64,000 nt of DNA from Escherichia coli (GTDB lineage Bacteria > Pseudomonadota > Gammaproteobacteria > Enterobacterales > Enterobacteriaceae), in NCBI RefSeq assembly GCF_030013595.1, contig NZ_CP122768.1. One strand, written 5' to 3'. The position numbers were made by a program, and so were the translations under genes. This document shows positions 57,973 through 64,000 of this stretch, in pieces; position 1 is the first letter of the stretch; every line of letters begins with the position of its first letter. The notes beneath the pieces are model-generated. The model saw only the letters and a list, made by a program, of their open reading frames with translations, did not search any database and was not told the origin of the DNA.

Positions 57973-60900
57973 TCAGGAGGCGAGCACCTCCACCAGCACA
58001 TCCGTTGCCCAGCTCTCTTCACTGTTGACCACATTCCCTTCCTGACAAGCTTGATCCATTTTGACTAACTGGAAAGAAACGTCATCGCGGAAGTCAAAGT
58101 AATGCCATTGCGATGCAAAGTTGATACGCCAGTAGCCCATCCCCTGATCGAAGCGGATCTTCAATACCTGACCATCCTCAAAAGTCACCGTCAGTTTACG
58201 ATGGTGAGGGATATCGCGCGGCGAGTCGAACACCGCCAGTTCTACCGGCCTGCCCAGCGCAGCTGCAAACCACTGATCAGCGAAATCCTGAAAATCCGCT
58301 ATGCTCATCCAGTCATGAAAAGGCCGGTTACCGGGGCGATCTTTATCTTTAAACAGCGTATCCAGCGTCACTTCAGCGCCATCGGTCAGCTTTGTTTTTA
58401 GCGGTCTCAGAATTGATCCCAACAACGCCAGCGCAACCGGGTTTTGCAGATAGCGATCGGTATAGTGAACGCCGGTAATTCGCGTATTTTTCATCAGTGA
58501 CTGCGCTTCTTCATGGTCGTTAAACAGCACGTCCCAGAAGCGTTGCCCAAACTGCGACAACGGTCCATTCAACTGTTTGTGGATCTGGATGTCTTTGACC
58601 CGCTCGACAGCGTTGGCGGCTTTAGCTGGCAGAATAAACTCGCTCAGTTCTACCGTTTTATAACCGAGGCTACGCACTACCAGTTCGTCATTCAGGTGCC
58701 ACTCCGGCCCCGGAATCGTTGCCTGCTGACTGCGAGAGGCCAGCGTCATCACGCGATCGGCAAAGGTAACCTGGGCAACAATCGGTAATTGCAGATCCTG
58801 TTCAACATGGCACAGTCGCACACCCAGCGCAGTAAATTGCGATAGTTCATGCAACAGGTCCGGATCATCCACTCCCGCAGGAATAACAAGATCGACCTCG
58901 ACGTTGTCTTTTAGCCGATAGCTCTGAATAGCCGCGCGGAACTGACGGGCGTATAAATCCCACTCATTGGGCGCGCCAGTCATCCACAGGGTGAGCTTTT
59001 CAGCGCCTTCGTTAATCGCCCGGCGAATCGTATCGCCAATAGCGCCAGGGCAGTAGCGGGCATCCGGCAGCGAGAATGTCTCTTCATCCGGTAAACCGAT
59101 GTAATACGTGAAGTCATCGCCAAGCCAGGCCAGCGCCGCTTTGCGATCCAGCAAATCATGATCGTGGCGAGTCTGGGAATCAAGCAGGCATTCACTGCAT
59201 GCAGTATCACAATGGCGGCAGCCTAACTGTTTCACCATTCCCTGCAAAATAGCTTCAATGTGTACCGGTGCGCTGGAGGCAAAACCTGCACCACCGCTGA
59301 TCACATCATAAAGCTGTACGGCTAATACCGATTGCCCATCCTCCAGTCTGACCGGACGTACAGAATAGCCGAGTTCTGCGGTGGAGATACCCAGAACGCC
59401 CGCCAGCGCCTGACGCAGAGCAACCGCCAGAGTCATGGCGACAATCCGCCCCTCTTCTGTGTTATCTGGCAGATACTCGCCATTTTGTGGTTTGCGCAGA
59501 ACCATTTCAAAGACATCGGTGCGCGCCAGTGCGCCCAGGGTGACTTTCTTCACGAGTGCCGTCGAACCTGGGCAAATCAGACGATGATTCTGGCTGTCGC
59601 GGTCCGCTTTACCCGGACGCGGTGGATAGTGAGCTTCCATACTTTTCGGCGCATCATTTTCATTCAGCATCGACTCCGCACGGCCACAGCTCAGACACAA
59701 TGCATAACCGTGTCCACCTTCCCCCAGACTTTGCTGGAAAACATGCCCATCAGCCCCAGAAGCCATATAACCCATTAGCGGGTTAGGCAACGGTACGGGC
59801 TCTGCTTTAACAAAGACCCACGCGGGGACAACCGGGACGAATTTCATGGTTTCAATATTGTTCGTTACCGGAGCATGTGCATCGGTAACAAACCCGGCAG
59901 GCTGCAGCACCTGACGGCGATTATCCAGGATGATTTTTTCGCCGCAGGCGCTGTTGGAGCAAAAGAGCATCCCGGAACTGCTCATCCCCTCTTCATAGCC
60001 AATGGTCCCGCATTTATGACAGCGCCAGGCGCAATCCAGACGCTGGGCTTCATTGGTATCAGCATTAATGTTGTGCCAGTGCAGTGAGACACCGGCAGAG
60101 CGGAAGACACGGCCATCAAGAATGATCTCTGCTCCCGGTGCATATTCACGAATGGCAACACCGAGGTTACGGGAAGGTAATCCTTTATAACGGGAGACGT
60201 TATCTTCACGGTCCTTTTTATCACGACTTTTCTGCGATTTTTCGCGGATATAATCTTCCATCGTGAAGTTATCAAACGTCACTACATCTGTCGGGAAACC
60301 GTATCCCGGCAGGAAGGTTCTGGCAGCCAGATCGCGCAGCAGATACTCGCCACAGTGCCGTTTCTTCTCCAGCTCTATGCGCTTACGATAAGGCGTTTGC
60401 GGCTGCGACTCACGCTCCTGGGTCACGAGATCGCGATAAACGGAGAGCCACCGCTGTTGCAGGAAGGTGATCGCGTTGATTGTTTTGTCCCGCAGATGTT
60501 CGGCTCTTGCGCCATGCAATGCCGTACCTTTCACCAGCCGTTCCAGCGCCGTGTCGATATCAAGAACAGAGCGTTCCAGCCAGACTTTGAAGCGTTCGCA
60601 TTTTGACTCCCCGTCATCTTCACCGAAAAACCAGAGGCTATCGAGGCTGGTTTTCTCTTTATCGGTTTCGCCAATAACGTTACATAAAAAGTCGGACAGT
60701 AATAATGCATTGACGTGACGTTGCACCAGTCGGGCGGAGTTCATCGCGACCATGGGTGCCGGGATCATGGTTTCAAACGGCCAGAGTGGGTTGGCAAAAA
60801 CCTGTTGGTCGTGTGGGTTACCCTTACATAGGGTGTAAGAGATCGCGCGCGATTCTTTACTACGCCCGGCTCGCCCGGCGCGCTGTAAATAGTTGGCCGG

Positions 60901-63900
60901 ATGTGGCGGTACGTTGTTCATTACCACCGCAGTAATGCCCCCGATATCAACCCCCATTTCCATGGTGGTGGAACAGTTGAGAACATTTAGTTGCCCATTC
61001 TTGAACATCTTTTCATAGCTTTGCAGACGTTCTGACGACTGCTGGGCAGAGTGCTCGGCAGTGCGATAGTAGAAACCGCCTTCCACGACACGATCGTTGA
61101 TGTCTGTCCAGACGTTTTCCGACCGCAATTGTGCGATCAGCGGATCATTGCTGACCCAGTCGCGTGCTTTTGCCAGACCCTCTGCGTAGTCTTCCTGTGA
61201 ACGATCCAGCTTCCAGATTTCCGGCATGGTGACTTTCTGCGCGACAAAAGTGTCATATTGCGCCTGGGTAAGATGCTCGAACGAAATATGGGTAGGCAGA
61301 TAAGGGGTTAAGCCTTTAAAAGCCGTATCCAGGATTTTATTGGTTACCGGGCAAATCCAGGCATCCGTGATTAAAGAAAAAGTCATATGCTCTTTCGGTA
61401 AATAAAAACGGTTGCCATCGGGTTTCAGTACTGCAAGCGGTCCGGTAAGTTGGGCCCATGCTTCTTTCAGCCATGTATTGATAATATCAATAGTCGCCGT
61501 ATTGACGGTTTTGAATCCAGCCCCCAGCATCAGTAACTTCGCTAAACGATGGGATACGTTGCCATTACGAATTTGAGGCCAGCGTCTGTTCTGATTATCT
61601 TCAGGATCTTTTGATTCCGGGTTACGGACGAATTTTGATGAAAAACGGCTACCAATCCAGTTTTTCAGCTCATCATCCAGCTGTGTGAAGTTGCTTTCGC
61701 GAACATAAAGATCCAACGTAACCTTGAGAAAATCGCGCCAGTCATCCAGCGTTAATCCTTTTTCCTGCCAGTGCAAGGGGCTCTTATGTATTTTCTCCAG
61801 CCCCTGGTAACCAACCTGAACCAGCCCCTGTGTTTCCAGGCTGTTAGTCCGTTTAGGGCGACGCATGAATTCCCGGAACAACAACATTTCCGAAAGCTTT
61901 AGTGGCCCGCCGTTTTTATTAAACACTTCAGGCTGCAAATAGTGGTTATATTTCAGTACCGGGCCACGGATATCGGCTTTATCTTTAAGCTCGTTAACCA
62001 TTTCTGTCCAGGTGCGGGATACCAGGGTAGTTGCTGCTTTTCCACCGGTTGCAGCCTGATAAGCCTGTTCAAGCTGTTCAGCCTGCGCTTGTGACAATTT
62101 CGCCTGGTCTGGCATTCCCCAGCTTCGATATTCTTCTGCCTGCTCACGGGCTTGCTTCGCCCTGGCCGCTAATTTTTCCAGATCGGCATTGGCATTCGGC
62201 GCCGTGGACGTTTGCGTCCGTTGATGCCAGCTCAGAATTTCGACTACGCTTCCGCGTAAGAGACTGCGTTCTGCTTCTTGCTGCATACGCACCGCCATTC
62301 GAGCTGTACCTTGTCGACTGTCCGTAAAGGTAATGAGTCGACGTCCTCGCCCTGGCAACGAATCTGGTCCGACGCCCTCTTTGCCTTCATCACTGGTAAA
62401 GTCCTGACAATACTCAAGAACGGTAGGCACGATGTTAGTAACGTAAAATGGCCCACCTAATAATGCACGCCGGAAGGGTTGTTTCCCACTCATGCCTCGG
62501 TAGCCACAGCCGCTGGCGCTACAAACCTTTTTATCATTAATAATCAGCGGAATGCTGTCATTATTAATAACGCCAATACGGCGCGTCTGACGGTCGAGGC
62601 GTTGTAGGGTATAGCCTGTCTCGCTGGTCTCTCCTGCGGCAATAATCAACGGAGGCAGGAAACCGTTCTCTTTTTCGACTTTTTCCTCTGTAGTGTCATG
62701 TTCAACAGGTACTTCATCCTGCAAGGAGAACTCATCGCCACCTTTATTTTCCCATTGGACAAGTTTGCCCTTTTTGTCCTGCGCCAGAAGATGAGGCTCA
62801 TTACAATCATTACAGAACGCCACTTCGTAGACAGGGCTTCCACAGTCGCAATTTTGTCGCTGGTTCACATACACATAGCCAAAGGGCCAGCCTTTTTCGA
62901 GCGGTGTACCGTGCTTTAATCTGCAATCTTTATCAACACAAGCCCATATTCCTTGGGTATTACGCTGGAAGATATGCGCCCTGACTTTAAGAAATGCGGG
63001 ATCCTTTGCATTAGGTTGAGTCCCTGAACAGACATCGATCCAACGCAGTACTTCCTGCTGGCTGTAATGCTGTTTTGTCAGCGCATTTAACCGCTGCGTC
63101 ATCTCATCCAGTTTCATTGGATTAGGTTGGCTAACCAACATTTCACGTATGTAACGCGCTTCGGGGGAGTGCGTAAGCGCATAAAAGCGCTCAGGACTTA
63201 TCCCTTTAATTTTATTATCATTTTTATCTTTTAGATCCAGATCAGGTATTTGCTCTATTTCGTCTAACGGAACAGAAACGTTTTTGGATGGTTCCAGTTC
63301 AGGAATCACCCGACTTCCGTCCAGAACATCGATGCGCTCCTGCGGGATACCGGATAATTCAGAGAGAAATTTTTTCAGCTGTTTTTCGGCGTCGCTGCCG
63401 GCAATGGTCGCAGAGGTCGCTACAAAGCGCACATCATCTGGCGTCACGCCAAACGCTGTCATCACACGACGCAGCTGGAGTGCCAGTTCAGCGGCCTGCG
63501 ACCCGACATAGGTATGCGCTTCATCCAGTACAATCCAGCGTAGTGATTTTTGTGCTTTGGATTGCTGGATAATCGGGGCGTCGACCTGGCGAACCATCAT
63601 ATATTCCAGCATCGTGCCGTTGGTCACCAGAATCGGGGCAGGCTCCAGACGCATCTTTTCACGGGATAAGACTTCATTTGGTCTATTATCCTGCACTGTT
63701 TTCATTTTTGCGTGGAGCTCTTCTGTATTTCCGTTATACAAGCAGTAGCGGATCCCAGTACCAAAACCACGCGTCCAGGCATCCAGACGCTCGCGCTGTG
63801 AATTAATCAAGGCGTTCAATGGATAGAGAAAAAGGGCTCGGACACCAACCAACGGATTGTTGCCATTTTCATGCAGTTCCCGGTAAAGATCTTCCAGCAC

Positions 63901-64000
63901 CGGAACCATAAAACATTCCGTTTTACCTGAACCCGTACCACTGGTTACCACCACTGAATGTTTCTTTTCCAGCAAAGCTTTCCAACTGGCTAACTGGTGT
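57973..64000 (-). CDS. Giant SF2 helicase with DUF1998-like zinc-binding clusters (DruE-like candidate defence protein); N-terminus beyond window end
   Basis: Over 2000 codons open. Walker [10 protein letters not shown] near 63940, DEAH box (VLDEAHTY) near 63510, motif [10 protein letters not shown], Cys clusters ([26 protein letters not shown]...[15 protein letters not shown]) and ~500-aa C-terminal region of unknown function. Frame continues upstream of the TTG reported by the ORF track. Confidence 0.8.

Follow-up and report, generated by a model that had tools for sequence, protein, structure and literature searches.

A probable type III-A Druantia operon at the yjiS-mcrC site of the Escherichia coli immigration control region

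The 6-kb minus-strand frame at the end of the analysed stretch of Escherichia coli DNA (64,000 nucleotides of contig NZ_CP122768.1, here called the window) is very probably druE. Its product would be the large helicase in an anti-phage system of two genes, Druantia type III-A, whose other gene, druH (yjiT), lies in the same operon just beyond the window. The kind of system is already known: Druantia type III is recognised by existing defence-system models, and its structure and biochemistry have been described. The system described here is apparently an intact Druantia III-A. In RefSeq, the druE product is named 'DEAD/DEAH box helicase' and its partner 'protein YjiT', the generic helicase name arising because NCBIfam has no DruE model and yields only sub-threshold helicase-core matches; calling the pair Druantia III gives the immigration control region a more informative annotation in the E. 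coli genomes with this locus.

An uninterrupted druE frame

Read on the minus strand, positions 57973-63999 translate into 2008 uninterrupted sense codons. The sole stop of the druE frame is the terminal one, at 57973-57975, and at its other end the frame runs off the window, so that the single frame of about 6 kb described in the earlier note stands, free of internal stops. By our own calculation, the random chance of 2008 stop-free codons is about (61/64)^2008, or roughly e^-96. Short plus-strand ORFs of 83-148 aa within the region were taken as antisense noise. The window itself contains neither the druE start, the first 105 codons lying beyond its end, nor druH; the full-length gene and the gene upstream of it were read in NZ_CM149870.1, a genome with an identical druE (100% identity over druE and over 57900-64000, 99.97% over 21 kb), where druE encodes 2113 aa. 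From this relative, we infer that the operon is intact in the source genome as well. The features discussed below are as follows, with residues numbered in the full-length protein and the coordinates of the three helicase motifs checked by translation.

57973..64000, minus: druE coding sequence, codons 106-2113 plus stop (open frame, PADLOC DruE3 match)
63385..63999, minus: RecA1 helicase lobe, Pfam DEAD, aa 106-310 (PF00270, E=1.9e-22)
63919-63942, minus: motif I, SGTGSGKT
63514-63525, minus: motif II, DEAH
62803..62940, minus: six-Cys zinc cluster C459, C464, C489, C491, C501, C504 (Cys positions; the region aligns with Sakai DruE cysteines)
60859..61065, minus: RecA2 core, Pfam Helicase_C, aa 1084-1152 (PF00271, E=1.1e-11)
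60862-60885, minus: motif VI
59944..60033, minus: five-Cys cluster C1428, C1432, C1435, C1452, C1457 (Cys positions)
59185..59427, minus: MrfA Zn-binding domain (MZB, formerly DUF1998), aa 1630-1710 (PF09369, E=7.9e-9), with C1699, C1702, C1706, C1709
57976..59154, minus: tandem PLD-like module, aa 1721-2113 (homology to 9TU7)
58450-58458 (D1953-R1954-Y1955) and within 58195-58206 (H2037, R2039), minus: PLD2 pocket, conserved residues, also including Y1951 and D2056
57936..57968, minus: intrinsic-terminator-like hairpin (15-bp stem with 9 G-C pairs, then a T-rich tract), immediately past the druE stop codon, where 56 bp separate druE from mcrC

Helicase core and zinc modules of DruE

The earlier note had read the frame as DruE-like from its size and its helicase plus DUF1998 layout, and profile searches bear this out. 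The PADLOC DruE3 model (PDLC00037) matched the window fragment with 2560 bits over fragment aa 1-2004 and the full protein end to end with 2693 bits (residues 1-2109, profile positions 1-2053 of 2055), and the structure of E. coli ATCC8739 DruE (PDB 9TU7) was matched with 1025 bits over aa 5-2081 of the druE product. Pfam identified a DEAD, a Helicase_C and one MrfA Zn-binding (DUF1998) domain, and the searches pointed to DruE3 rather than to a housekeeping helicase family. In order, the domains are an MrfA/YprA-family helicase of the SF2 DExH type, carrying zinc modules as insertions, then the MZB (DUF1998) domain and two PLD-like domains.

Helicase motifs I, II (DEAH) and VI, which had been named from the sequence, all lie at verified coordinates. 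G128, G130 and K131 together with D264 and E265 align with G118, G120 and K121 and with D251 and E252 of E. coli DruE, in which the G118V/G120V and D251A/E252A substitutions abolish defence (bioRxiv 10.64898/2026.05.13.724758) and K121 is an ATP contact in the structure (PMC13192584). R1148 and R1151 of motif VI align with R1135 and R1138, both essential in E. coli DruE, and C1699, C1702 and C1706 of the MZB domain with C1681, C1683 and C1687, whose mutation abolishes defence (bioRxiv 10.64898/2026.05.13.724758). In this alignment, all residues proven essential in E. coli DruE, in the Walker A motif, the DEAH motif, motif VI and the MZB cysteines, are kept.

Paired cysteines cluster at aa 459-504, 598-603, 1428-1457, 1540-1543 and 1699-1709 of the full protein. 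The several CxxC clusters that the earlier note took as typical of MrfA/DUF1998 are thus present, as is the DUF1998 domain, but only the last of them falls inside PF09369. Those outside the MZB domain appear to correspond, by position, to dZBD and OBZ, the DruE-specific zinc modules named by Himpich et al. in describing 9TU7: the six-Cys cluster is probably the double Zn-binding domain inserted in RecA2, and the five-Cys cluster probably lies in the OB-fold/Zn-binding region.

A tandem PLD-like module at the C-terminus

The C-terminal extension, estimated earlier at about 500 aa and left unrecognised, does exist; it comprises about 400 aa after the MZB domain and, by its alignment with 9TU7, corresponds to the tandem PLD-like module. 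Residues 1623-2081 align with 9TU7 residues 1609-2082 (E=5.7e-37), and the PLD-like assignment rests on this homology to a solved structure and on family conservation, as Pfam found no PLD family in the C-terminal half at E<=10. The canonical HxK(x)4D motif is absent from the whole DruE protein, with a family-conserved HxR...DxG in its place; Hu et al. likewise reported its absence in E. coli DruE (bioRxiv 10.64898/2026.05.12.722862). Y1951, D1953, P1959, H2037, R2039 and G2058 are invariant in 44 of 44 diverse full-length DruE sequences. A search with the C-terminal module retrieved 753 representative clusters at E<=1e-3, and in the longest proteins among the best 150 of these 753 clusters (~2000-2250 aa), the match lies at the C-terminal end. 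Tandem PLD-like domains at the DruE C-terminus distinguish subtype III-A from III-B (Himpich et al.), and their predicted presence here assigns the system to III-A.

The role of PLD2 as a nuclease is disputed, with nuclease activity reported in two preprints and the PLD domains found dispensable in two (bioRxiv 10.64898/2026.05.13.724758, 10.64898/2026.05.12.722862, 10.64898/2026.05.13.724313; PMC13192584). Because the pocket is invariant in the family and fully present here, we favour a role in helicase-coupled nuclease activity or nucleic-acid binding. A second, distant E. coli homologue offers a useful test case for the dispute over PLD2 catalysis.

The druH partner and the operon

The earlier note placed the operon partner upstream of position 64000, and a defence partner was indeed found there in NZ_CM149870.1. 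The gene directly upstream of druE, annotated yjiT, encodes a protein of 1096 aa that matches PADLOC DruH3 (PDLC00049) end to end with 1829 bits and NCBIfam YjiT_fam with 1260 bits against a cutoff of 150. Its stop codon is separated from the druE ATG by 12 nt, with an AGGA ribosome-binding site between them. The druHE operon is flanked by yjiS and mcrC in NZ_CM149870.1, and no DruA-D, DruM, DruF or DruG gene is present in it. In the window, mcrC (56870-57916) and druE converge, with the terminator-like hairpin between them. The locus is part of the immigration control region, as first proposed, and has restriction genes of type I (hsdRMS) and type IV (mcrBC, mrr) as neighbours. A promoter scan upstream of druH found one weak sigma-70-like site only, fewer than the chance expectation.

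Distribution, decay and alternative readings

A druHE operon that is at least 80% complete is present in about 4% of complete E. coli genomes. Any part of druHE occurs in 672 complete E. coli genomes, at least 80% of it being kept in 231 of them; about two thirds of the carriers have a decayed locus, and druHE is therefore often dispensable. The decay includes K-12 itself, as the comparison of the K-12 mcrC-yjiS interval suggested in the earlier note makes plain: yjiT (b4342) and the pseudogene yjiV (b4486) occupy the same site and share 96-99% nucleotide identity with the operon here over the kept segments, but 2.18 kb is missing inside druE and 3.0 kb across the druE 5' end and the druH 3' end, so that a YjiT fragment of 505 aa and a pseudogene of the helicase remain. 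The Druantia call thus accounts for yjiT and yjiV, long without an assignment in K-12, as what deletions have left of a defence system.

Such decay raises the question of whether the operon here is itself a non-functional relic, with its frames still open yet the system silent or inactive in this lineage and heading towards a K-12- or BL21-like state. The small share of carriers that retain the operon, the K-12 deletions, the extent kept in K-12 types (46%) and BL21 types (35%), the IS insertions in several strains and the single weak promoter-like site upstream of druH would all fit such a relic. Against it, the frames of 2113 and 1096 codons are free of stops, the tested catalytic and zinc residues are all kept, and the 90%-identity cluster counts 3969 members from Escherichia, Klebsiella and Citrobacter. 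Moreover, the dN/dS ratios among intact alleles, 0.09-0.12 for druE and 0.17-0.20 for druH, indicate continuing purifying selection on both genes. We accordingly regard a relic as improbable.

Still less credible, to the point of being very improbable, is that the frame belongs to another defence system with an MrfA/YprA-type helicase (DISARM DrmA/B, ARMADA, Dpd or BREX BrxH) or is a housekeeping helicase such as MrfA or Lhr. These families have the DExH core and MZB domain in common with DruE, and weak matches were obtained to DpdJ (94 bits), SngC (91), BrxHI (82) and DrmA (35), to the MrfA/YprA structure 6ZNP (E=8.9e-17), and to NCBIfam DECH_helic (114 bits) and Lhr-type models. However, these matches cover the RecA lobes only and fall far under the cutoffs (e.g. 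114 vs 874 and 88 vs 800 bits), whereas DruE3 matches end to end; models of DrmA, DpdJ, BrxH and Cas3 all score <100 bits against DruE. The neighbours are druH, yjiS and mcrC, with no methyltransferase, DrmB/C, ArmA-D, Dpd or MrfB-like gene flanking the frame. DISARM was rejected in particular, as DrmA models reach at most 35 bits, over RecA2 only, the helicase and DUF1998 are fused in one protein, and the operon contains no methyltransferase or DrmC; the housekeeping helicases MrfA/YprA and Lhr were rejected on the scores of DECH_helic (114 vs 874 bits) and the Lhr-type PRK09751 (46 vs 1496).

Proposed mechanism

We infer the mechanism of the Druantia system described here from homologues that are 33-36% identical. 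Intermediates of phage replication and recombination would offer exposed 3' single-stranded DNA or forks, on which DruE dimers would load and which they would unwind 3'-to-5' with ATP; the phage would be cleared and the cell not killed. DruH would act on the single-stranded DNA. Published accounts of DruH differ, describing it as an ssDNA binder inhibited by ATP, as a 3'-5' exonuclease or as a sensor, and four mechanistic preprints conflict on the nuclease activity of DruE, the need for the PLD domains and the role of DruH (bioRxiv 10.64898/2026.05.13.724758, 10.64898/2026.05.12.722862, 10.64898/2026.05.13.724313; PMC13192584). Intact frames and dN/dS values of 0.09-0.20 give indirect support to the prediction that the operon here protects against phages and that both of its genes would be needed.

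Given that DruH is only 24% identical to its studied counterpart and no Zorya II neighbour is present, the clade may differ in trigger or phage range and may be coupled to the adjoining EcoKI-type hsdRMS, McrBC and Mrr, a proposal that we make tentatively and hold to be rather unlikely. DNA ends made by restriction would then supply 3'-tailed substrates for DruE loading, and the reported synergy between Zorya II and Druantia III provides a parallel for such coupling.

Comparison with known systems

The parent family of DruE is represented by Bacillus subtilis MrfA/YprA (PDB 6ZNP), a 3'-5' SF2 repair helicase with the same combination of a DExH RecA core and an MZB/DUF1998 domain; in contrast to DruE, MrfA has 751 aa, lacks the dZBD and stalk insertions, the PLD domains and a DruH partner, and has a housekeeping repair role. 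Pseudomonas aeruginosa PaDruH-PaDruE has the same helicase, DUF1998, OB and PLD architecture as the system here. In the PaDruE pocket, D1917 and R1918 are reported to be essential, and Y1919, H1999 and R2001 to line the pocket (Loeff, Chanez, Jinek; bioRxiv 10.64898/2026.05.13.724313); these five residues would correspond to D1953, R1954, Y1955, H2037 and R2039, as judged by motif spacing and family conservation rather than direct alignment, with D1740, H1830 and S2022 left out of the comparison.

Druantia III-A has been characterised in five 2026 papers (including bioRxiv 10.64898/2026.05.13.724758, 10.64898/2026.05.12.722862, 10.64898/2026.05.13.724313 and PMC13192584). Our search for literature connecting yjiT or yjiV with Druantia found only Wu et al., and no experimental work on the present clade. 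The E. coli type III-A system of ATCC8739, EDL933 and Sakai (PDB 9TU7-9TUD) is likewise a two-gene druH-druE operon, and its DruE, of 2104 aa compared with 2113 aa here, has the same domain order and shares motifs I, II and VI, the MZB cysteines, the tandem PLD-like domains and the YxDRY / HxR / DxG pocket. Beyond this common plan, the two differ substantially. Compared with the Sakai proteins (DruH ECs_5259, DruE ECs_5260), DruE is 33% identical over 2181 columns by BLASTP and 36% by global alignment, with the RecA cores at 55-58% and the PLD region at 27%, and several residues that mediate DNA contacts or dimerisation in E. coli DruE are changed (e.g. K900P, R914G, R628D, Y191A). DruH is 24% identical to its Sakai counterpart, in the N-terminal half only, and only aa 14-266 align with the solved DruH 9TUD, so that the ATP- and ssDNA-binding residues of E. 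coli DruH are not transferable. The studied E. coli system resides in the OI-172/SpLE6 island, a leuX-associated mobile element, together with Zorya II and ARMADA II, whereas the operon here lies between yjiS and mcrC with no Zorya II neighbour. Judged by these sequence comparisons, it represents another clade than the studied Druantia III-A.

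A type III Druantia operon in the immigration control region

The minus-strand gene at 57973-64000, which the earlier note had proposed to encode a DruE-like Druantia helicase, belongs to a type III Druantia system of two genes. The DruE3 model of PADLOC-DB (PDLC00037) matches the full protein end to end (2693 bits; protein residues 1-2109, profile positions 1-2053 of 2055) and the window fragment with 2560 bits, whereas the DruE models of types I, II and IV score 360-543 bits, and those of DpdJ, SngC, BrxH, DrmA and Cas3 score below 100 bits, on the RecA lobes only. The protein encoded upstream of druE in NZ_CM149870.1 is matched end to end by DruH3 (PDLC00049; 1829 bits) and by NCBIfam NF038336 (YjiT_fam, 'STY4851/ECs_5259 family'; 1260 bits, cutoff 150). 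In the NCBIfam search, DruE reached the score of no model, which accounts for its RefSeq name, 'DEAD/DEAH box helicase'.

Translated on the minus strand, 57973-63999 comprises 2008 sense codons and just one stop, the terminal one at 57973-57975. The frame is unclosed at the window edge, in agreement with the open frame of about 6 kb described previously, and runs too long without a stop to have originated by chance. The predicted helicase motifs I, II and VI were all located and their coordinates verified, and the proposed DUF1998 domain was recovered by Pfam. The several cysteine clusters reported correspond to five paired-cysteine clusters in full DruE (residues 459-504, 598-603, 1428-1457, 1540-1543 and 1699-1709).

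Features of druE and its 3' flank (window coordinates, or residues of the full protein)
63919-63942, minus strand: motif I, SGTGSGKT (translation)
63514-63525, minus strand: motif II, DEAH (translation)
60862-60885, minus strand: helicase motif VI (translation)
57936-57968: hairpin with a 15-bp stem, then a T-rich tract, inside the 56-bp mcrC-druE gap
Residues 106-310: DEAD (Pfam search)
Residues 1084-1152: Helicase_C (Pfam search)
Residues 1630-1710: MrfA Zn-binding domain, formerly DUF1998 (Pfam, E=7.9e-9)

A megablast search of 5426 complete E. coli genomes with window positions 57900-64000 identified two genomes with 100% identity. One of these, NZ_CM149870.1, aligns with the last 21.1 kb of the window at 99.97% identity and carries a druE of 6342 nt encoding 2113 aa, so that only codons 1-105 fall outside the window. 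In this genome, the partner gene anticipated beyond position 64000 is present as a 1096-aa gene annotated yjiT (druH), on the same strand and 12 nt upstream of druE, with an AGGA ribosome-binding site within the gap. Further upstream lies yjiS, and the opposite flank comprises mcrC, mcrB, symE, hsdS, hsdM, hsdR and mrr; thus, the neighborhood is the classical immigration control region, as the earlier note had it, and the convergent arrangement of druE and mcrC, which ends at 57916, likewise stands.

Several local features were also observed. G+C content is 0.37-0.41 in mcrB and mcrC (55473-57916) and 0.48-0.55 in druE (57973-64000); being near the E. coli average, druE is not compositionally foreign, unlike these neighbors. 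Beyond the window end, an IS3-family element (25390-26618 of L001, the NZ_CM149870.1 locus) is inserted beside yjiS, immediately upstream of the promoter region of druH. The type I specificity subunit gene hsdS (53392-54551) is broken into a pair of overlapping ORFs (53392-54072 and 53997-54551). Relative to NZ_CM149870.1, in which hsdS already carries the annotation of two partial pseudogenes, the window has two single-base deletions, after 54030 and after 54481; the split could reflect real inactivation or homopolymer sequencing errors.

A conserved C-terminal PLD-like module

The C-terminal extension, in which the earlier note recognized no motif, has a counterpart of known structure: DruE residues 1623-2081 can be aligned to 1609-2082 of the solved structure 9TU7 (E=5.7e-37), which take in a region described as two PLD-like domains (Himpich et al., bioRxiv 10.64898/2026.05.13.724758; Hu et al., bioRxiv 10.64898/2026.05.12.722862; Loeff et al., bioRxiv 10.64898/2026.05.13.724313; Wu et al., PMC13192584). 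Because PLD-like domains separate subtypes III-A and III-B (Himpich et al.), the presence of both assigns this system to III-A. Neither the canonical HxKx4D motif nor a Pfam PLD family match was found in DruE, as reported for E. coli DruE by Hu et al.

With residues 1715-2113 as the query, a search of 1.84 billion representative proteins yielded 753 clusters at E<=1e-3; in the full-length hits (~2000-2250 aa) among the 150 best listed, the match sits at the C-terminal end. Across 44 aligned diverse full-length sequences, Y1951, D1953, P1959, H2037, R2039 and G2058 are invariant, and D2056, Y1955 and R1954 are conserved in 98%, 91% and 86%, respectively. These residues correspond to the pocket of P. 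aeruginosa DruE, in which D1917 and R1918 are essential for defense, and Y1919, H1999 and R2001 line the pocket (Loeff et al.). Such strict conservation of the pocket in the second domain (PLD2) argues for a working site. At residues 2037-2040 (window 58195-58206), HHRK in this clade takes the place of HGRE in the E. coli DruE studied so far; in addition to the family-invariant H2037-x-R2039, there is thus an extra triad, H2038-x-K2040, similar to the HxK of canonical PLD proteins, with no Asp at the canonical spacing after it.

Selection and decay of druHE in E. coli

Three intact E. coli alleles contain no internal stops in druE or druH, and dN/dS values of 0.09-0.12 for druE and 0.17-0.20 for druH indicate that both genes are under purifying selection. 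For the same strain pairs, dS of druE (0.09-0.13) is 2-3 times that of the adjoining druH (0.03-0.05; L001 15074-24718 and the compared loci L004 and L005), which suggests a mosaic or recombinant history inside the operon. At 90% identity, this DruE falls in a cluster of 3969 members, among them Klebsiella and Citrobacter proteins.

The locus is often lost in E. coli: some part of druHE is found in 672 complete genomes, and at least 80% is kept in 231 (4.3% of 5426). In the equivalent interval of K-12, which the earlier note had singled out for comparison, 46% of druHE is retained after two deletions, one of 2.18 kb within druE and one of 3.0 kb reaching from the 3' end of druH into the 5' end of druE. 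What remains is yjiT, reduced to 505 aa, and the pseudogene yjiV (L002, the MG1655 locus; NC_000913.3, 4572414-4576855), clearly deletion relics of this operon. In the searchable literature, no link between YjiT and DruH was found beyond that made by Wu et al. The sole BL21 remnant is the 3' 3.35 kb of druE, and several strains carry IS3, IS2, IS5 or IS30 insertions within druE or druH.

Possible mechanism

The four mechanistic studies (Himpich et al.; Hu et al.; Loeff et al.; Wu et al.) concur that defense requires both druH and druE and rids the cell of phage without killing it, and that DruE is a dimerizing, MrfA-like ATP-dependent helicase engaging ss/duplex DNA junctions or forked DNA. 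Three describe 3'-to-5' unwinding from 3' overhangs (Hu et al.; Himpich et al.; Wu et al.), whereas Loeff et al. find a preference for 5'-overhang junctions, made by DruH. ATP-dependent nuclease activity of DruE is reported by Loeff et al., who tie it to the PLD pocket, and by Wu et al.; in contrast, the PLD domains were found dispensable both by Hu et al. and by Himpich et al. DruH is variously a 3'-5' exonuclease (Loeff et al.), an ATP-inhibited ssDNA binder (Hu et al.), a sensor with dimer-dependent nuclease activity (Wu et al.) or a scaffold (Himpich et al.).

By analogy with these E. coli and P. aeruginosa homologs, DruE might load onto exposed ssDNA of phage replication or recombination intermediates and unwind them, DruH would work on the released single strand, and the invariant PLD2 pocket could supply DNA cleavage or binding. 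Cooperation of druHE with the adjoining restriction systems is a possibility. The locus is of modest interest for this putative cooperation, for explaining K-12 yjiT/yjiV as relics, and for the strict conservation of a disputed pocket.

Comparison with characterized E. coli systems

The top solved-structure match of DruE is 9TU7 (1025 bits, residues 5-2081), the DruE of E. coli ATCC8739 (Himpich et al.). All residues of E. coli DruE at which mutation abolished defense (Himpich et al.) are conserved here, namely the glycine, acidic, arginine and cysteine sets listed below. K131 is the counterpart of the Walker lysine K121, which contacts ATP in the structure described by Wu et al. Differences do occur among the DNA-contact and dimer-interface residues (K900P, R914G, R628D, Y191A).

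Residues of E. coli DruE and their counterparts here
G118/G120: G128/G130
D251/E252: D264/E265
R1135/R1138: R1148/R1151
C1681/C1683/C1687: C1699/C1702/C1706

Identity to the ATCC8739 system as found in O157:H7 Sakai (DruH, ECs_5259; DruE, ECs_5260)
DruE, BLASTP, 2181 columns: 33%
DruE, global alignment: 36%
DruE RecA1 and RecA2 cores: 55% and 58%
DruE insertions and PLD region: 27-29%
DruH, restricted to its N-terminal half: 24%

The Sakai genes, unlike those described here, adjoin Zorya II on SpLE6, and the solved DruH, 9TUD, aligns with the present DruH over residues 14-266 only. Given this low identity, the clade here differs from that studied so far, 'cluster 11' of 15 Druantia III clusters (Wu et al.). 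Since PADLOC and NCBIfam models already recognize the system, its kind is known, and this locus is an ordinary member of a divergent clade of type III Druantia.
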